The notes beneath the pieces are model-generated. The model was not told the DNA's origin and did no database searches. It saw nothing but the letters and a program-made list of their open reading frames with translations. The position numbers and the translations under genes are program-made. From Nitrososphaeria archaeon (GTDB taxonomy: Archaea > Thermoproteota > Nitrososphaeria > Geothermarchaeales > JDFR-13), in NCBI GenBank assembly GCA_027078545.1, contig JALWXN010000001.1, positions 1-64,000 on the forward strand: a stretch of DNA of 64,000 bases, written 5' to 3'. This document shows, piece by piece, positions 12,480 to 64,000 of the stretch (positions within the stretch are counted from its first letter, which is position 1; every line of letters starts with the position of its first letter).

Positions 12480-12540
12480 GTGGATGATGAGGCTCGAAAG
12501 GTTTGAGCCCTTGGCGATGAAAGAAGATCGGTGCTGACAC
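12480..12540 (+). ncRNA. Box C/D methylation-guide sRNA
   Basis: Box C ATGATGA 12484-90, D' TTGA 12503-06, C' GCGATGA 12514-20, D CTGA 12534-37; 12-13 nt guides; GTG/CAC terminal stem; intergenic. Confidence 0.82.
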
Positions 12541-12549
12541 CCATGGCTC

Positions 12550-12569
12550 TTTGCAAAAATTTTTGCAAA
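12550..12569. promoter_or_regulatory. Perfect 20-bp palindrome TTTGCAAAAATTTTTGCAAA (operator or terminator)
   Basis: Self-reverse-complementary; lies between the sRNA 3' end and a TATA-like CTTATAAG near 12588. Confidence 0.6.
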
Positions 12570-12618
12570 TTGAAGGGGCCGTGTTCCTTATAAGGGGTTT
12601 CCGCACCCGCTTGGGCGG

Positions 12619-13785
12619 GTGCCTCCGATGGAGTTTGTCTTTGAGGGTGTTAGGTGGGGATGTGGTGCGGATAGGCTCCTCAGGGGTGCCGTGCTCTATG
12701 TAGGTAGGTATCGCAGCGACTTTGTCGGTGAGGTTTTCAGCGCTTCAGGTGGTATGGTCCTCCATGATCCACGGGGTGTCTATAAGGGTGGCTTGGTGCT
12801 TGAGTATGGCCTCGATATACGTCTAGACCTCCTTATGAGGCCCGAGCTGCTGATGAATAGCCTTTACAGCCTTGTGAGGAGTCTGGGTATGAAGCTGCAG
12901 TACTGGGTGATGGTTCTCCCAGTACTGGTTGGGGATGTTAGGAGGGAGTATGACGACCCATCACTATATACGCTCTACGAGGTGGCTGGTGAGAGGGCTG
13001 AGGAGAGTGGTGGGGTTGAGAAGGCTGGCTATGTGGAGCTGCATAGGCTCCTGGGTATGGTGGCCCAGTATACGGATGGGCGTGTCTTGGAGCCCCCAGC
13101 AGAGCAGGTCTCGCTACCGAGTGATGAGTCTATCGTGGTTAGGTACTCGGGCTGTGGTCCCTGGGCTAGGCTGGTTATACCACAACTTGTCTTCAGCCTG
13201 CTGCTTGGGGATGGGGCTGGACAGATATTGATGGATGGTGACACCCTCCTAAAGGGTTATGACAACGTACTCTGGAGGCTTAGTGAGTATCGGGTTCTAG
13301 TCCATAGCAATAGGCTTGATCATAGGGTGATACCCTTCTTCGACGTCGTTGTGACTGAGCAGGGCCTTGCCAGGCTGGGGGAGATATATGCATACTCTGC
13401 CGACCAGTCGTACCCTACTAGATATGTGGCGTGGGATGGGGATGCCATTGTCGGGGTTGAGCCGGCCTACTCTGAGGGTGAGTCCCCTATAGAGCGTGGC
13501 CCAGCATACCCCGAGACCCCTGGGACTGGGGCTGAGTCTGACTATCTAGAGCTGTATAGGGATATCGTTGCCAGGATCCTTGGGATAATATCGGGCTATG
13601 GTGAGCTGACTGCAGACGGTGTCTATATCCATATGCCTGGTGTGGAGAGGAGGCTTGTCTATAGCCTGCTAGAGAGGCTGTGGAGGGATGGCTACCTCAG
13701 GCGTGAGGTGGGGCGCTCCAGGCCTGTATATAGGCTGACCGCTAAGGGCGTGGGTCTCCTTAGGGAGGTGGAGGGTGATGAGTAG
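12619..13785 (+). CDS. Hypothetical protein: degenerate HerA/FtsK-like fold plus C-terminal winged helix
   Basis: VLHDPRGVY resembles HerA DPxGEY; no GKT/S; QILMDGD at a Walker-B-like position; LLERLWRDGYLRRE..YRLTAKG winged helix. Confidence 0.5.
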   Translation: MPPMEFVFEGVRWGCGADRLLRGAVLYVGRYRSDFVGEVFSASGGMVLHDPRGVYKGGLVLEYGLDIRLDLLMRPELLMNSLYSLVRSLGMKLQYWVMVLPVLVGDVRREYDDPSLYTLYEVAGERAEESGGVEKAGYVELHRLLGMVAQYTDGRVLEPPAEQVSLPSDESIVVRYSGCGPWARLVIPQLVFSLLLGDGAGQILMDGDTLLKGYDNVLWRLSEYRVLVHSNRLDHRVIPFFDVVVTEQGLARLGEIYAYSADQSYPTRYVAWDGDAIVGVEPAYSEGESPIERGPAYPETPGTGAESDYLELYRDIVARILGIISGYGELTADGVYIHMPGVERRLVYSLLERLWRDGYLRREVGRSRPVYRLTAKGVGLLREVEGDE

Positions 13786-14758
13786 GAGGCTACTTATAAA
13801 CTCTATCCCCAGGCTTAATGAGGTCTTCATGGGTGGAGTAGCGCCTTCCAGCATGATACATATCTATGGTAGGTACCAGACTGGTAAGAGCTTATTGGCT
13901 CTACAGATCCTCTATGAATGGGTCTCCAGTGGGTTCGGCTCAGCATTGGTGCTCGACTCTGAGCATAGCTTCTACAACAACTTCTCCAAGACGTGGATGG
14001 AGCGCTTTGCAAAGAGGTTCGGTGTAGGGGTGGAGATGGTTAGGCTCTCGAAGGAGAAGTATAGGGTGCAGGGTGATAAGAAGCGCTACCTAAACGATAT
14101 CAGAAACGTTATGATGGACGTCTTCCAGGAGTTGGGGATGGAGGTTGATGAGACCTATCTAAGGAGGGTTCTCGAATACCTGCTCCCACAGGTGGAGCTT
14201 AGGCCGGAGAAGACTGTCGATCGCGCTATATATGTGTATGAGGTCTCAGGCGTGGAAGAGTTGGCGGAGCTCCTCGGCATGAAGAGTAGCGTCAAGGTGG
14301 GTAGTAAGAAGATCGAGGCCTCCATGGATAGGACGACCGATCTTGAGACATCTCCCCTCGCCAACTTCATAAGGAGTGCTGGTGTGAAGTTCATACTCCT
14401 CGACAGCCTGGGCGGCCTCATGAAGAACTATATCTTCCATCTACAGGACTTCCCCACTAGGGCGGCGATACTGAACGTGATGCTTCACTCACTGGGTACG
14501 CTGGCCTCTAGCCACGGCCTGATAATATTCGTGTCGAACCATGAGTCTAGGAACCCGACGACGAACTACCACTCCTTCTACGGCGGCTCAGCGGTGGGCT
14601 ATGGCTTCAAGTATGTGCTCTACATGAGGCTGGAGAGGGATGGTTATCGGGAGGTTATTGGGTATAGGGCTCCCCACATGCCTGAGGCTGGGTGGAGGCT
14701 CAGGCTCCGGCTTGATGAGAGGGGGTTTACACAGGATGTGGATGGGGAGGCTGATTAA
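13775..14758 (+). CDS. RadA/Rad51 paralog (RecA-superfamily ATPase) lacking the N-terminal HhH domain, with an insertion
   Basis: LNEVFMGGV, Walker A GRYQTGKS, LDSEHSF, Walker B ILLDSLGG, SNH, GGSAVGY, APHMPE..ERGF. Confidence 0.8.
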   Translation: MMSRRLLINSIPRLNEVFMGGVAPSSMIHIYGRYQTGKSLLALQILYEWVSSGFGSALVLDSEHSFYNNFSKTWMERFAKRFGVGVEMVRLSKEKYRVQGDKKRYLNDIRNVMMDVFQELGMEVDETYLRRVLEYLLPQVELRPEKTVDRAIYVYEVSGVEELAELLGMKSSVKVGSKKIEASMDRTTDLETSPLANFIRSAGVKFILLDSLGGLMKNYIFHLQDFPTRAAILNVMLHSLGTLASSHGLIIFVSNHESRNPTTNYHSFYGGSAVGYGFKYVLYMRLERDGYREVIGYRAPHMPEAGWRLRLRLDERGFTQDVDGEAD

Positions 14759-15032
14759 GGTAGTTGCTGCCGGCTACATGGCGTCCATGGCCATCAGCCT
14801 GGTCTCTGACCTGGCTGCCGCGATGCTCTTCATCATTGCTCTGCTCAGCTCACCCATACTCGTCCATCGATACCCCGGTATGATGAGGACTACCACGATA
14901 TACGTCCTCCTAGGCGCGTTTATAGCGCTTCTGATCGAGGTTCCCCCAGCGATGATCCTCGTCCTACTGATCATCTACTTCTTCAGGAGGGAGGTGATGA
15001 TTCTTTGGCGCCTACTGACCTTAGGGAGCTGA
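14742..15032 (+). CDS. Small hydrophobic membrane protein
   Basis: About 96 aa with 3-4 hydrophobic stretches; overlaps both neighbours; start uncertain (14736 or 14742). Confidence 0.6.
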   Translation: MGRLIKVVAAGYMASMAISLVSDLAAAMLFIIALLSSPILVHRYPGMMRTTTIYVLLGAFIALLIEVPPAMILVLLIIYFFRREVMILWRLLTLGS

Positions 15033-15637
15033 TCAATGGAGAGCCTAGGCTTGTAGCGGTGCTGGATAGGCCTCCATACATCGTTACAGAGGGGGTGGAG
15101 GAACTCTTGGACGGGTATAAAGTGCTTGTGAGGAACGGTGCCTATAACGGGCTCGGGGTCATGGCTGTGGGGAGGGGTGTCGCCTCCCCTCTATATACGC
15201 CTTCACAGCATGTCTATGACAAGCTGAGGGGTGGGATACTGGTTAGGGCAGTACTTAGGGACCCCACCGCACTGTTGGATGGTGAGGGGGAGGCTCAGCT
15301 CCTTGTAAGTGGTGTGGAGACTGATCCGGTGACACTCTCGAACTACGTGGTGCCGGTGATGGTGGATAGGGACTATCTACTGGGCCTGATCGAGAGGGCT
15401 GGGAAGATACTAGTCAGGGGTAGGCCCTACAGCAGGGGATCAATAACACTCGTCAAGGAGTATGGATATCCAATAGAGGAGTTGTTTAGGCTGTATGGTG
15501 GATGTCCATTAACGCTATACCTGGGGGGTAATAGGCTTAGGATCGGGTCTACGAGGAGGTGTAGCCTATTGATTGGGGATCCACAACCTCCCTACGTCAC
15601 GATCGATAATGGTCTCAGGATTGTTTGGAGGCTGTAA
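15005..15637 (+). CDS. Hypothetical protein
   Basis: 210-aa ORF with host-like codon usage, upstream GGAGGTGA RBS, followed by a T-tract. Confidence 0.7.
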   Translation: MAPTDLRELINGEPRLVAVLDRPPYIVTEGVEELLDGYKVLVRNGAYNGLGVMAVGRGVASPLYTPSQHVYDKLRGGILVRAVLRDPTALLDGEGEAQLLVSGVETDPVTLSNYVVPVMVDRDYLLGLIERAGKILVRGRPYSRGSITLVKEYGYPIEELFRLYGGCPLTLYLGGNRLRIGSTRRCSLLIGDPQPPYVTIDNGLRIVWRL

Positions 15638-15677
15638 CCCCCCATTTTTTAGTTATGATTGGGGATGACACTATTTT

Positions 15678-16382
15678 ATGCTCCCCCTCAGAGACATAAA
15701 TCCCAGTGAGACTAGGCCGGTAGTTACAAAGTCCCTAATCGCTCTGAATGTCGCGATATTCTTCCTAACATTCTTCAGGGAGGATTATCCCCTCATAGTG
15801 GATCAGTGGGGGTTTAAGCCTATATACCTCTTCACCGGTGAGAGGCTGGAGACGCTGATTACCTCCATGTTTCTACATGGGGATCTACACCACCTACTGG
15901 GTAACATGCTCTTCCTATGGATCTTCGGTGATAATGTGGAGGACGCCCTTGGCCATCTCAACTATCTAGTGTTCTACATCTCATCAGGCATAGCAGCGGC
16001 TATAACCCAGAGCCTAGTCCCTGGTAATCCCTATATACCTATGATAGGTGCCTCAGGGGCGATCTCAGGTGTTCTGGGGATGTACATCATCTTCTTCCCC
16101 TTCGCCAGGATAGTGACAGCCGTGTTCTACTTCTTCGTCATGATCTATGAGATCCCAGCTATACACTACATATGGTTCTGGTTCGTCATCCAGTTCCTCT
16201 ATGGAATGGTCTCCATATTCAGGCCCGCGGGCTTCGGGGTCGCCTATTGGGCCCATATAGGCGGCTTTGTCTTCGGGGTTGTGCTGGGCTTACTGCTTAA
16301 GAATATTGGTAGGGTGAGGCTGAGGACTGAGAGGTATAGGGAGCTGATAGCATATCGGGGATACCGCTGGAGGGGATATTGA
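15678..16382 (+). CDS. Rhomboid intramembrane serine protease
   Basis: HLLGNM, GASG, AHIGG catalytic motifs. Confidence 0.95.
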   Translation: MLPLRDINPSETRPVVTKSLIALNVAIFFLTFFREDYPLIVDQWGFKPIYLFTGERLETLITSMFLHGDLHHLLGNMLFLWIFGDNVEDALGHLNYLVFYISSGIAAAITQSLVPGNPYIPMIGASGAISGVLGMYIIFFPFARIVTAVFYFFVMIYEIPAIHYIWFWFVIQFLYGMVSIFRPAGFGVAYWAHIGGFVFGVVLGLLLKNIGRVRLRTERYRELIAYRGYRWRGY

Positions 16383-40408: not shown

Positions 40409-41470
40409 ATGGCGGTCGTTAGATACCTCGCCTTTAGAATTGTGAATGCCCTCATCATACTGTTCCTAGTCCTGCTCATCACAGCGGTAATGATGAATGA
40501 GTATGTCGAGGATCAGATCAGGACTGATATCAGGGAGAGGGCATACCAGGAGATATATAGGAATCCTCAGTATGCCCAGTGGACTGAGGAGCAGAAGCAG
40601 AGGGCTGTACAGGAACGTATAAAGTTTTATGAGAGGCAGTATGGTCTTGACCAGCCCTACTATGTTAGGGTGTTATACCGGACCGTAGACGCGATGATGT
40701 TCAACTTTGGTAACGCGATGGTTCTGAAGAGTGCCGGTGGATCGCCGGTGGTGTCCGACATTATTCTTGAGGCGTTGCCGAGGACTATCCTACTGTTCAC
40801 CACTGGTACTATCATCACGATCGTCATAGGCATATTACTGGGTATTAAGGCGGCTACTAAAGTAGGCTCACTGCTAGATAGAACGATATCGACATTCGCG
40901 ATGTTCACATACAGCCTACCCATGTGGTGGGTGGGCATGATCTTCATCTTCTACTTCTCATACACATTAGGTATATTCCCATCAGGAGGTATGGTTAGTA
41001 TACCCCCTCCTGAGGAGCCTATGGCATATGCCCTAGATGTCCTGTATCACTTGGCCCTGCCGCTGATAGTCTTCGTCTTCGTAAACTTCGGTGGCTGGAG
41101 CTACGCAACTAGGAGTATCGTGCTCAACGTCTTGACCGAGGACTTCGTGAACACGGCCAGGGCCAAGGGTGTGCCTGAGAGGAAGATTCTCTATGGCCAT
41201 GTCCTAAGGACGGCTAGTCCGCCTATCGTTACCTCGACGACCCTGGCCATTCTCGGCTCGATAGGCGGCGCTATTATCACGGAGGCTGTATTCAACTGGC
41301 CGGGTATTGGTAGGCTCTTCTACCAAGCCATCCTCAATGGTGATATGCCTGTAGTAATTGGTCTGACCTACATATCCACCTTCCTCTACGTCTTCGCCAT
41401 ACTGGCTCTGGACTTTGCGTATGCCCTGCTAGACCCGAGGATCAAGGTCGGTGTGGGAGGCGGTAGATAG
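40409..41470 (+). CDS. dppB: Peptide/nickel ABC transporter permease
   Basis: TARAKG EAA loop, EAVFNWPGIG, LDPRI. Confidence 0.92.
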   Translation: MAVVRYLAFRIVNALIILFLVLLITAVMMNEYVEDQIRTDIRERAYQEIYRNPQYAQWTEEQKQRAVQERIKFYERQYGLDQPYYVRVLYRTVDAMMFNFGNAMVLKSAGGSPVVSDIILEALPRTILLFTTGTIITIVIGILLGIKAATKVGSLLDRTISTFAMFTYSLPMWWVGMIFIFYFSYTLGIFPSGGMVSIPPPEEPMAYALDVLYHLALPLIVFVFVNFGGWSYATRSIVLNVLTEDFVNTARAKGVPERKILYGHVLRTASPPIVTSTTLAILGSIGGAIITEAVFNWPGIGRLFYQAILNGDMPVVIGLTYISTFLYVFAILALDFAYALLDPRIKVGVGGGR

Positions 41471-42885
41471 TGTATGGGATGGGTATTAAGGACATAGTAT
41501 CGGAGTTCCTGCGTTTCAAGAGTGGGCTGATCGGCGTCTTCCTCCTACTAATCATTGTAGGGATGGCTATCGCTGCCCCGGTAATCAGTGATGAAGAGGC
41601 GGGTTACCGCTGGTATGACATCGAGTGGTGGACAGAGAAGAACATCCCTAAGGGTGTCCCACCTGAGTGGATAGGTATTATCGAGGGTAGGGAGTATGCA
41701 TCTACCACTGAGTTTACGTATACCATACCTAGTAGGGATGGCTTCAGATTTACCTTCAACATATCGTATGACATGACGGCGGACGTCCCGCCCTCGGACA
41801 TAATCCTATATATAAACGTGTCGAAGGCTGAGGGTGCTGCGGATGAGGAGTATATCGTGATCATGAGTATCTATAGGCCTGACGGCACAAAGATCGACCG
41901 TGTCCTCGACCTGACCACAGCGGCTCCCTTGGCTAAGATTACGATCTCCACAGATGATAGGGCTAGATCCACGATAGTGACCTTCATGAAGAAATATGAT
42001 CCTGAAAACTTCGAGGATATCACGTCTCGTGGCCTCCTGGAGGTTATAGATATTGTTAAGATCTTATTCTCGGAGGCTCAGGAGGATGTTCTTCTAGAGA
42101 AGGCGCCTCCTCTTAAGGGGGAGTATAAGTTTGAGATCACCCTCTTCAGGAGAAGTACCAATGTAACCTTTAACGAGGCTAAGCTGGTGGTTCTAGGCTC
42201 TGCATACGGTATCTTCGGGACTGACAGTTTCGGAAGGGATATCTTTGTGGGTATTATCTGGGGGGCTAGGATAGCTCTCGTCCTAGGCCTCGTCGTAGCT
42301 ATAGTCAGCGTCTTGATAGGGGTTGTCTATGGAACGGTTAGTGCATATGTGGGTGGATGGACGGATGAGGTCCTCCAGCGTATACAGGAGTTCGCAATCT
42401 CAATCCCCCTCCTACCACTACTCCTGATCCTGGCATACACCTTTAAGCCCACGATATGGAACCTTATACTTCTGCTCATAGTATTCTCGTGGCCAGGCCC
42501 TGTAAAGACTATCCGCAGCATGGCCCTGCAGATACGTGAGCAGCTCTATATAACGGCTGCTAAGGCGGTAGGTGCCTCGACCTCTAGGATAGTGCTTAGA
42601 TATATCCTTCCACAGATACTGCCATACACCTTCGCACTGGTGGCCTTCGCCGTCCCAGGAGCTATCCTGACCGAGGCCGGTGTAAGCTTCCTACTAGGTG
42701 CACAGGGTACGCTGGAGATTACCTGGGGACGTATACTGAGTGACGCTGAGAGGAAGAGCGCGGTTCTCACTGGTATGTGGTGGTGGGTCCTCCCGCCAGG
42801 CCTCATGATAGCCATATCTGGCCTGGCCTTCGTCTTGATAGGCACTGCTCTGGATCGTGTCCTCAACCCGAGACTGCTCAGGTGA
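41470..42885 (+). CDS. dppC: Peptide ABC transporter permease with extracytoplasmic insertion
   Basis: GTDSFGRD, AAKAVGA, WWWVLPPG, LNPRL. Confidence 0.92.
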   Translation: MYGMGIKDIVSEFLRFKSGLIGVFLLLIIVGMAIAAPVISDEEAGYRWYDIEWWTEKNIPKGVPPEWIGIIEGREYASTTEFTYTIPSRDGFRFTFNISYDMTADVPPSDIILYINVSKAEGAADEEYIVIMSIYRPDGTKIDRVLDLTTAAPLAKITISTDDRARSTIVTFMKKYDPENFEDITSRGLLEVIDIVKILFSEAQEDVLLEKAPPLKGEYKFEITLFRRSTNVTFNEAKLVVLGSAYGIFGTDSFGRDIFVGIIWGARIALVLGLVVAIVSVLIGVVYGTVSAYVGGWTDEVLQRIQEFAISIPLLPLLLILAYTFKPTIWNLILLLIVFSWPGPVKTIRSMALQIREQLYITAAKAVGASTSRIVLRYILPQILPYTFALVAFAVPGAILTEAGVSFLLGAQGTLEITWGRILSDAERKSAVLTGMWWWVLPPGLMIAISGLAFVLIGTALDRVLNPRLLR

Positions 42886-42892
42886 TCTGGCC

Positions 42893-43852
42893 ATGTCGTC
42901 CGACCTAGCACTGGATGTGAGGGATCTAAAGGTATACTACTACACCTATGCAGGTGTAGTGAAGGCAGTGGAGGGTGTCTCCTTCCAGCTCCGGAAGGGT
43001 GAGACCCTCGGGCTGGCCGGTGAGTCTGGGTGTGGCAAGAGTACGCTGGGCTTCTCTTTGATGAACCTAGTCCCCCCGCCCGGCAGGATAGCTGGTGGGA
43101 GCATCTACCTAGACGGTATGGATATCGCGAAGATGAGTGAGGAGGAGCTTAGGAGGAAGATTAGGTGGAAGAAGATCAGCATGGTCTTCCAGGGGGCTAT
43201 GAACGCATTGACACCAGTATACAAGATTGGTGACCAGCTGGCCGAGCCCCTCATGGTCCATAAGGGGCTGGAGAAGAATGAGGCTATAGAGGAGGCCAAG
43301 AAGATCCTCCCCAAGGTCGGCCTCGACCCAGAGATTGTGAATAGGTATCCACATGAGCTTAGCGGTGGGATGAAGCAGCGTGTAATGATTGCTATGGCCC
43401 TTGTCCTGAGGCCGGAGGTCGTCATAGCTGATGAGCCTACAACGGCTCTAGACGTGATTGTCCAGGCCCAGATCCTCAACCTCCTGAAGAGCCTTAAGAA
43501 GGAATTCAACATCAGCTTGATACTCATCTCGCACGACCTGAGTATCATGGCTGAGGTGGTTGAGAGGCTAGCGATAATGTATGCAGGTAAGATGGTGGAG
43601 ATAGGCTCCAGCGATGAGCTCTTCGCGGATCCCAAGCATCCCTATACTCAGGGCCTCCTAAAGAGTATCCCCAAACTGACTGAGAAGGGCCTCCACTACA
43701 TCCCTGGAACGCCTCCAGACCTTAGGAACCCGCCCCAGGGATGTAGGTTCGCCGATAGGTGTCCATTCGTATTTGATAAGTGTAGGCGGGAGGAGCCCCC
43801 GATGTTCAAGGTGGGGGAGACCCAGTATGCCGCGTGCTGGCTATATGAGTAG
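42893..43852 (+). CDS. dppD: Peptide ABC transporter ATP-binding protein
   Basis: GESGCGKS, LSGGM, DEPTT, HPYT, GCRFADRC. Confidence 0.94.
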   Translation: MSSDLALDVRDLKVYYYTYAGVVKAVEGVSFQLRKGETLGLAGESGCGKSTLGFSLMNLVPPPGRIAGGSIYLDGMDIAKMSEEELRRKIRWKKISMVFQGAMNALTPVYKIGDQLAEPLMVHKGLEKNEAIEEAKKILPKVGLDPEIVNRYPHELSGGMKQRVMIAMALVLRPEVVIADEPTTALDVIVQAQILNLLKSLKKEFNISLILISHDLSIMAEVVERLAIMYAGKMVEIGSSDELFADPKHPYTQGLLKSIPKLTEKGLHYIPGTPPDLRNPPQGCRFADRCPFVFDKCRREEPPMFKVGETQYAACWLYE

Positions 43853-63223: not shown

Positions 63224-64000
63224 ATGTCCTGGGACGTGGATGAGTTTAGGAGGGGGATCCAGTTCCTCGAGAACCGGTTTAGAACCTCATTGGAGAGGGT
63301 GGAGGGCCGGGTAGATACATCACGACTCACCAGGAAGTTGGATGAAGAGGCTGCGAAGGACTATCTATATAGGCTGTGGGGCGAGGGCGAGTATACAGCG
63401 ATAGGTATAGACGGTAGTATGGATCACTCGGTGGCGCTGGACATCATAACGATGTTTATAGCAGTCGCCACTGCGGAGGCCAGGTTCACTGTTAGCCGTG
63501 ACGGTATAGGGGTAAGCCTCGACGAGTCGGACATCTCTGCTAGGGAGAGTATCTATAAGGTTGTGCCCTACTCGTTGGAGGATTCTGTGGAGGCCAGTGG
63601 CTTCGGCTCAGCCCTGGAGGAGAGGTCTGTAAAGGGGACTATAGAGAGCATCCCCAACGCTGTTATGACTCTGGGTGAGTTCTACATAGCTAGGAAGTCG
63701 CTGGAGAGGGAGGATGTTAAGATCGTCTTCCTAGACAGGCCCATAGCCAGCACCTATGGTCCATACTCCAGGAATCTGAGGGAGCGTCTGGATAGGGATT
63801 GGGACTGGGTATTCATAGACGAGGATGTTATGGGTGGAGAGGCTATCCAGCCGATCGATATCTACCTCACGCTACACATAGGTCCTAGGCCGGGATTCCT
63901 TGGGCTCCAGTATATACCCGGCCAGAAGCTGGCCTATGTAGTCGACCGTATGCTGAGCCTGGCGGATGAGGATGGCATGGTTGATCTTAGGGAGCTTGGG
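63224..64000 (+). CDS. NurA-family nuclease (partial, runs off the window)
   Basis: Hand-translated open frame MSWDVDEF...AIGIDGSM...LGEFYIA...VFLDRP. Confidence 0.7.
   Translation, partial: MSWDVDEFRRGIQFLENRFRTSLERVEGRVDTSRLTRKLDEEAAKDYLYRLWGEGEYTAIGIDGSMDHSVALDIITMFIAVATAEARFTVSRDGIGVSLDESDISARESIYKVVPYSLEDSVEASGFGSALEERSVKGTIESIPNAVMTLGEFYIARKSLEREDVKIVFLDRPIASTYGPYSRNLRERLDRDWDWVFIDEDVMGGEAIQPIDIYLTLHIGPRPGFLGLQYIPGQKLAYVVDRMLSLADEDGMVDLRELG

Follow-up and report, generated by a model that had tools for sequence, protein, structure and literature searches.

How might an archaeon use an operon in which a motor-type ATPase fold stripped of its ATP site is coupled to a recombinase-like ATPase? 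The question is raised by four genes, g1 to g4, at positions 12628-15637 of the window, the term used here for the whole stretch of 64,000 nucleotides analysed, which covers the first 64 kb of contig C1 in an archaeal metagenome-assembled genome (1.24 Mb, 92% complete). All four genes lie on the + strand, each overlapping the next. A previous sequence-only reading had proposed that they encode a membrane-tethered DNA-handling complex, of a composition for which it knew no described system. In archaeal homologous recombination, no component is understood as poorly as the RadA paralogues, and to our knowledge the route by which foreign DNA is taken up and integrated is unknown in most archaea. 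We found that the operon is a derived, lineage-specific form of a phylum-wide module, which consists of an inactivated ("dead") HerA-like gene, a RadA-family gene and a membrane-protein gene. The operon may encode a membrane-anchored recombination accessory complex, a reading that we favour while judging it a little short of evenly probable.

Gene 1 Has a HerA/VirB4 Fold without an ATP Site

The open reading frame (ORF) of g1 is open from a GTG at 12619, and the ATG at 12628 is taken as its likely start, because the orthologues P0001 and P0002 begin there; the gene thus spans 12628-13785 (+) and encodes 385 aa. In Pfam searches, only a weak C-terminal PadR/TrmB winged helix was detected in g1. 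The DUF87 model PF01935 (gathering cut-off, 23.2 bits) gave no match to g1, and a scan of the same genome with this model found four other genes. When a profile of 12 g1 orthologues was searched against 1.84 billion representative proteins, a small family of 25 clusters was recovered at values below 1e-10, beyond which the profile reached proteins with the Pfam DUF87/HerA central domain, at values from 1e-10 to 1e-4.

The AlphaFold2 (AF2) model of g1 had a predicted local distance difference test (pLDDT) score of 86 and a predicted template modelling (pTM) score of 0.87. In VIA comparisons, residues 1-291 of the model matched VirB4 (4ag6) with a Z score of 17.8 over 276 residues and a root mean square deviation (rmsd) of 3.8, the other matches being DndH-C (Z 16.6), HerA (8yhx, Z 14.7) and TrwB (Z 13.4), and Foldseek agreed on this fold with an E value of 8e-6. 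Residues ~307-388, as numbered from the GTG at 12619, form a winged helix of the MarR/PadR type (Z ~13, rmsd 1.6-2.2), which resembles the pNOB8 AspA and STIV F93 proteins. The doubt whether g1 has a P-loop fold at all is thus settled in the affirmative by the VirB4, HerA and Foldseek matches.

The ATP site itself was found to be lost. The Walker A motif of DUF87, GxTGSGKS, aligns to G-RYRSDF in g1, a place at which no family member has a Lys or Ser/Thr, and the Walker A lysine is absent from all 29 family members aligned. The strand motif hhhDxxG[YW], which comes after the P-loop position, is kept in g1. Walker B is not conserved, as the segment matching HVhhxEEA reads QILMDGDT in g1 and is variable in relatives; some distant g1-like proteins retain VDEAH at this position. 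Taken together, the AF2 model, the VIA and Foldseek matches and the motif alignment agree with the earlier description of g1 as an ATPase-dead HerA/FtsK/VirB4 fold joined to a winged helix.

In comparison with the FtsK-HerA superfamily (HerA, VirB4 and TrwB), g1 has in common the additional-strand catalytic E (ASCE) P-loop fold, the hhhDxxG[YW] motif and the profile link to DUF87, but it differs in the lack of the Walker A lysine, of a conserved Walker B and of an N-domain resembling the HAS barrel. It also adds the C-terminal MarR/PadR winged helix-turn-helix (wHTH), and it is partnered with a RecA-family ATPase instead of with NurA, Sir2 or DUF4297. Complexes of HerA with the latter three partners use an active HerA.

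Gene 2 Encodes a Core-Only ATPase of the RecA/RadA Family

The g2 ORF extends over 13775-14758, and the gene (13778-14758, +) starts at an ATG (13778) that overlaps the g1 stop codon TAG (13783-13785), with a GGAGG 5 nt upstream of the ATG. In Pfam, g2 matched KaiC with 28 bits (cut-off 26.6, aa 11-64 only) and Rad51 with 24.4 bits (cut-off 22, aa 13-87 only), and the region around its Walker A motif matched the KaiC, Rad51 and RecA models. The C-terminal half was matched by RadA models and structures over aa 197-317, including NCBIfam PRK04301 with 2.5e-10 over aa 197-311, and RadA chains in the PDB also matched g2. An alignment of 24 g2 sequences showed G32, G37, K38, D61, E63, D210, S211, R229, H256, G270 and G271 to be invariant; the motifs kept are GxxxxGK[ST], DTE, hhhhDS, an Arg at the L1 position of RadA, NHE and YGG. 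The Pfam, NCBIfam, PDB and alignment data therefore place g2, which had been read as a RadA-like ATPase with intact Walker motifs, in the RecA/RadA family with those motifs in place.

Alignment with RadA revealed an insert of ~85 aa between Walker A and Walker B of g2. The protein begins ~10 residues ahead of the strand leading into Walker A, and the N-terminal 80-90 residues of RadA have no counterpart. Against the equivalog models, g2 scored 32.5 bits for RadA TIGR02236 (cut-off 361), 40 bits for RadA PRK04301 (cut-off 259), 24.7 bits for RadB TIGR02237 (cut-off 172.4) and 16-24 bits for KaiC_arch and ArlH (cut-offs 215-307).

The features shared with RadA, RadB and aRadC are the RecA core, Walker A, DTE, Walker B, the Arg at the L1 position and the GG of L2, and g2 is also like RadB in having no N-terminal helix-hairpin-helix (HhH) domain and in coexisting with a canonical RadA. 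On the other hand, it is set apart from RadA and RadB by its scores (25-40 bits against cut-offs of 172-361), by the insert and by its position in a separate long-branch clade. Its NHE stands where RadA has a TNQ/TNH segment. A further difference from RadA, RadB and aRadC is the obligate coupling of g2 to a dead HerA-like gene; for RadB and aRadC, which are themselves RadA paralogues of the core-only kind, we know of no coupling to a HerA-fold pseudoenzyme.

Elsewhere, the genome contains a canonical RadA, a KaiC-like gene, a NurA-HerA-Mre11-Rad50 operon and a second NurA-HerA pair. Since canonical RadA and NurA-HerA sets are thus encoded outside the operon, we regard the operon as accessory or extra. 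Both NurA-HerA loci are on contig C4, the canonical NurA-(206 aa)-HerA-Mre11-Rad50 operon at 1082020-1089318 and the shorter second pair at 41016-43405; the gene of the cognate RadA is also on C4, at 70162-70881.

The Gene Pair Is Conserved in the Family and across the Phylum

The counts given below are of genomes sampled and searched, and related genomes are not independent observations. With the g1 protein as a single query, we found the g1-g2 pair in 11 of the 13 sampled genomes of the same family, representing six of its seven genera, and the query detected no g1 in 28 further genomes belonging to the same order or class. Within the family, g2 always stands next to g1, either overlapping or adjacent, and g3-like and g4-like ORFs come next wherever the contig extends far enough. 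The flanking genes (Maf, rhomboid, PCC and PfkB) are largely kept across genera. The genes are therefore syntenic in relatives, and the operon is vertically inherited in a slot of the core genome and is not a mobile island.

A profile rebuilt from both kinds of weak g1-profile matches described below was searched in 400 genomes across the phylum, and the 30 best loci were analysed. These loci come from at least eight families and include all 17 sampled genomes of one genus. The GxxxxGK[ST] motif is missing from the g1-like ORF in 30 of the 30 best loci, and an ORF of the RecA/RadA family lies directly downstream on the same strand in 29 of them, the remaining one stopping at the contig end. 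Sixteen loci were checked for the ORF immediately upstream, which often overlaps the g1-like start; in nearly all of them it encodes a membrane protein of 200-485 aa. The linked recombinase-family gene is a lower-scoring paralogue in all ten genomes checked for this, the best-scoring (canonical) RadA being located elsewhere. Among the weaker matches to the original g1 profile, each protein without Walker A is followed by a RecA/RadA-family gene, and several have the same C-terminal winged helix; those that keep Walker A intact are DUF87 ATPases of the ordinary kind, and no RecA-family neighbour is present in the loci L036, L060, L062 and L066.

The module was found in four layouts. Layout A consists of a membrane protein, a dead HerA-wHTH protein of 450-520 aa, a soluble protein of 105-135 aa and a full-length RadA paralogue with HhH, and is present in complete genomes such as G054 and G047; layout B consists of a 454-aa membrane protein, a dead HerA of 409 aa and a 287-aa RecA-like protein. 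Layout C, that of the window, comprises a dead HerA-wHTH protein, an insert-bearing core-only ATPase, a 96-aa membrane protein and an orphan. In layout D, a metagenomic variant, an active DUF87 protein of 838-872 aa precedes the g1-like/RecA-like pair, whose RecA-like member has the g2-type insert and groups with g2. The window thus holds the most derived version, with a recombinase that has an insert and no HhH, and with a miniature membrane protein and an orphan recruited. No description of a dead-HerA/RadA-family gene pair was found in the literature searched on HerA, RadA paralogues, KaiC-like proteins and DUF87, in agreement with the earlier remark that no system of this composition was known.

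Two proposed relationships between the layouts were tried and set aside. A correspondence of the small soluble protein of layout A with the g2 insert or with g4 gave no signal (hhalign probabilities 0.2). Descent of g2 from the clade of g1-linked RadA paralogues was unsupported in a quick tree, in which g2 and the RecA-like partner in locus L039 formed a separate long branch, where long-branch effects are possible.

Several loci deserve a separate mention. In each of the genomes G372, G324, G204 and G348, RadA is present in at least three high-scoring copies of full length, and the one linked to the dead HerA-like gene is among them. In L042 (1-18337), a 778-aa dead-HerA-like/wHTH protein shares a metagenomic operon with a RadA, with helicases of the XPD-like DEAD_2 and the DEAD-box type and with several small membrane proteins. 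In L039 (2758-4059) and a related contig, both of layout D, a LAGLIDADG endonuclease gene directly follows the g2-like gene, and the protein composition is unusual, being Q/T-rich.

The Operon Is under Purifying Selection and Includes a Small Membrane Protein and an Orphan

Gene 3 (14742-15032, +) encodes 96 aa, or 98 aa from an alternative ATG at 14736, and either start overlaps the stop codon of g2. Gene 4 (15005-15637, +; 210 aa) starts at a TTG (15005), and GGAGGTGA lies 7 nt upstream of this codon; the overlap of the gene with the g3 stop codon amounts to 28 nt. The genes of the operon are translationally coupled. A T-tract, ATTTTTTAG, read from the sequence at 15645-15653 (+), 8 nt past the g4 stop, is likely an archaeal terminator, and the next gene 3' of it is a rhomboid gene starting at 15678. 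A divergent Maf gene flanks the operon on the other side. A scan for sigma-70 promoters and intrinsic terminators was also made and is uninformative for archaea. The ORF coordinates, together with the upstream elements described in the next section, match the earlier picture of four overlapping + strand genes bounded by a palindrome/TATA element and a T-tract.

The ratios of nonsynonymous to synonymous substitution (dN/dS), determined against a 91%-identical relative, were 0.19 for g1, 0.04 for g2, 0.02 for g3 and 0.19 for g4. From these low values, we conclude that all four genes are real and under purifying selection. The set is also more than a chance arrangement, since its order recurs in relatives, its dN/dS values are low and a unique palindrome upstream of it is conserved. 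The GC content of the operon is that of its surroundings, and no integrase or repeats were found at the operon. None of the four proteins matched a PADLOC model for anti-phage defence at E 0.1; this result, with the core-genome synteny speaking against a defence island, led us to drop a defence-system reading.

A hydropathy scan revealed three to four hydrophobic segments in g3, which bears out its earlier assignment as a membrane protein of roughly 96 aa. A small hydrophobic ORF is present at the g3 position in every locus of the family, and the sequences are barely alignable; profile searches of g3 gave no match in Pfam or the PDB. Gene 4 had been called unrecognised, and the family, fold and protein searches were all empty: nothing was found in Pfam, NCBIfam, PADLOC or the PDB, profile search included, the sole near-identical match among 5.8 billion proteins was g4 itself, and no homologue was found outside the lineage. 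Pfam searches with all nine positional orthologues of g4 returned only noise. These orthologues are 27-28% identical where g2 is 56-61% identical, and the only features common to them are the short motifs PPYI and DK[LF]RGG[IL]. The AF2 model of g4 built from nine sequences had a pLDDT of 31 and was unusable. Gene 4 is thus a fast-evolving orphan retained in position. The idea that g4 is a decayed RecA fold was also tried, and no such fold was detected (hhalign probability 0.2 against the g2 family).

A Unique Conserved Palindrome Precedes the Operon

The palindrome TTTGCAAAAATTTTTGCAAA (12550-12569) is a perfect, 100% self-complementary 20-nt sequence and a candidate operator. It has the form TTTGCAAA-N4-TTTGCAAA, which is invariant in seven genomes, and more distant genera of the family have a related palindrome, TTsAAAAATTTTTsAA, at the corresponding site upstream of g1. 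No second copy was found in the 1.24-Mb genome, even when two mismatches were allowed, and we regard the palindrome as an element dedicated to the operon because of this single copy. Downstream of it, a TATA-like box, CCTTATAAGG (12588-12597, +), was read from the sequence ~30 nt upstream of the g1 ATG, and TTATAA or TTTTAA is present at this position in the seven genomes. This palindrome, which lies upstream of the TATA box, probably serves the operon as its own operator, and the winged helix of g1 possibly binds to it. Being unique and clean, the candidate operator could be used to examine whether the winged helix binds DNA.

Just before the g1 start lies a GC-rich hairpin, GCACCCGC-TTGG-GCGGGTGC (12603-12622, +), a perfect 8-bp inverted repeat that is kept in relatives only in part. 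It covers the ribosome-binding region of g1 and the site where transcription is expected to start, and could be an element of translational control or be functionless.

We also noticed a candidate C/D-box small RNA (sRNA) at 12480-12540 (+), between the Maf gene and the palindrome. The seven genomes share its C box GGATGATGA, an invariant 10-nt guide GCTCGAAAGG, a C'-like GCGATGA and the D box CTGA; a second guide is variable, and the Rfam matches are weak (sR30, 19.8 bits, E 0.07). The sRNA was not seen in the more distant genera that carry the related palindrome.

A Proposed Recombination Accessory Complex Is Weighed against Other Roles

In the recombination accessory complex that we favour, g1 would no longer pump DNA and would serve as a winged-helix DNA-binding scaffold, possibly ring-shaped, while g3 would tether the assembly to the membrane. 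Gene 2 would provide ATP binding and hydrolysis together with contacts to single-strand DNA, and would assist the canonical RadA, whose gene lies elsewhere, as an accessory or mediator, a role that other core-only RadA paralogues play, and g4 may be a fast-evolving, lineage-specific adaptor. The membrane-tethered DNA-handling complex proposed in the sequence-only reading is strengthened by the phylum-wide coupling of dead-HerA-like, RadA-family and membrane-protein genes, and the function, the formation of a complex and the handling of DNA are what we infer. The concept may be compared, as an analogy from general knowledge, with the eukaryotic Rad51-paralogue mediators (Rad55-Rad57, Shu and BCDX2), in which a RecA-family paralogue and non-catalytic partners likewise aid the main recombinase; unlike the operon, these have no HerA-fold subunit and no membrane anchor, and no homology beyond the RecA fold was found, nor was any tested for.

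Several points weigh against this proposal. Gene 2 has neither the HhH domain nor the linker bearing the polymerisation motif, so that recombinase-like behaviour is not assured, and it falls far under the equivalog cut-offs of RadA, RadB and KaiC. The quick tree puts the g2 family on a long branch outside RadA proper, and descent from a RadA paralogue is not shown by it. Moreover, with g3 of only 96 aa and g4 without a recognisable fold, half of the operon adds nothing to the functional argument, and the wHTH with a unique operator is also compatible with a purely regulatory role.

A RecA-family ATPase, an inactivated translocase fold and a membrane anchor, kept together in many families, provide a testable candidate for a membrane-linked recombination step, and the module shows a motor ATPase kept as a pseudoenzyme scaffold. 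A more far-reaching idea, which we hold to be doubtful, is that the dead HerA/wHTH protein, the RadA-family ATPase and the membrane anchor constitute an unrecognised membrane-bound recombination machine of TACK archaea, taking DNA that arrives at the envelope, or broken chromosome ends tethered to it, to homologous recombination. If true, the machine would have been built from a conjugation-type motor now retired, and would be the archaeal equivalent of DprA/RecA loading in bacterial transformation.

One alternative is that the operon acts at the receiving end of DNA uptake or cell-to-cell transfer, where the dead-motor/wHTH scaffold would capture DNA at the membrane and the RadA-family ATPase would be loaded, import being driven by a separate motor. 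In function, it would resemble the loading by DprA/RecA at the competence pore of bacteria. We consider it unlikely. A membrane-protein gene is coupled to the pair throughout the variants, the closest folds to g1 are those of the conjugation ATPases VirB4 and TrwB, and a separate cluster of an active DUF87 ATPase and a T2SSE-type ATPase in the genome (present also in L036) could be the motor. In Ced and Ted, VirB4-like ATPases are paired with small proteins of the membrane, and both systems are co-localised with genes for recombination (PMC9905601). However, the operon itself has no active motor and no channel-sized membrane protein, g3 has no pilin-like match in the PDB and Pfam profiles, and no DNA transfer is known for the lineage. 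The CedD model NF053655 requires more than 600 bits; g1 gave no NCBIfam match, and the best match in the genome, at 164 bits and below the threshold, is another gene, the DUF87 ATPase of the locus L125.

Ced in Sulfolobales and Ted in Thermoproteales require an active VirB4-like ATPase (CedB/TedB), a channel of 6-7 transmembrane segments (CedA/TedA) and a VirB2-like pilin (CedA1/TedC) (PMC9905601). The operon is like them in having a VirB4/HerA-fold protein with a small membrane protein and in its genomic links to recombination genes, and differs from them in that the HerA-like protein is inactive, g2 has the RecA rather than the VirB4 fold, and no such channel was recognised. The sole membrane protein of the operon is the 96-aa g3, which shows no PDB or Pfam profile similarity. 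The comparison with Ced/Ted drawn in the sequence-only reading is thus an analogy only, there being no active VirB4-like motor, no channel of CedA/TedA size and no CedD match.

A second alternative, which appears quite unlikely, is a signalling or regulatory switch, in which a KaiC/ArlH-like g2 would control the MarR/PadR-type DNA binding of g1 in response to a membrane cue received via g3. The HerA-like domain would then be an oligomerisation platform only, by analogy with the docking of ArlH on the ArlI ring at ArlJ. In the archaellum, the KaiC/RecA-like ATPase ArlH docks on a hexameric ring of ATPase fold at the membrane platform (PMC5019145), and the ArlH-ArlI-ArlJ architecture is documented (PMC5019145; bioRxiv 10.1101/2021.03.19.436134). 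The N-terminal part of g2 does match KaiC (28 bits, barely over the Pfam cut-off) and ArlH (3.4e-5), the C-terminus of g1 is a wHTH of the MarR/PadR type, and the conserved palindrome stands directly upstream of the promoter. Against such a switch, the palindrome is single in the genome and the operon itself is therefore the only visible target, the C-terminal half of g2 matches RadA and not KaiC, and the partner in other lineages is a full-length, HhH-bearing RadA paralogue, which points to DNA transactions over signalling. The likeness of g2 to ArlH is also weak (E 3.4e-5; 23.7 bits against a cut-off of 215). In addition, ArlI is an active ATPase of the PilT/VirB11 class and not of the HerA class, the archaellum has no wHTH, and the operon has no archaellins.

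Finally, it is very improbable that the operon is a domesticated remnant of a plasmid or virus module for partition, packaging or transfer, with a role limited to self-maintenance: archaeal plasmids and viruses often carry ATPases of the HerA/FtsK fold and AspA/PadR-like centromere binders, the g1 wHTH resembles pNOB8 AspA and STIV F93, and the distant variant L039 adjoins a LAGLIDADG gene, but the operon keeps its core-genome slot, with Maf on one side and rhomboid on the other, in several genera, has the GC content of its surroundings with no integrase, repeats or PADLOC matches found, and is under purifying selection in all four genes.

Other HerA-Family Loci

Another HerA-family locus begins at the very end of the window and extends beyond it (63225-64000 and on, corresponding to C1:63225-66802). 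In it, a 602-aa ORF without a Pfam match precedes an active DUF87/HerA-like gene of 541 aa and an ORF of 145 aa. In addition, an active DUF87 ATPase of 498 aa, a T2SSE-type ATPase and two small ORFs form a cluster at the locus L125 (C4:347423-351343). This arrangement recurs in the unrelated metagenome contigs L036-L038, and the cluster is a possible secretion or DNA-transfer motor.

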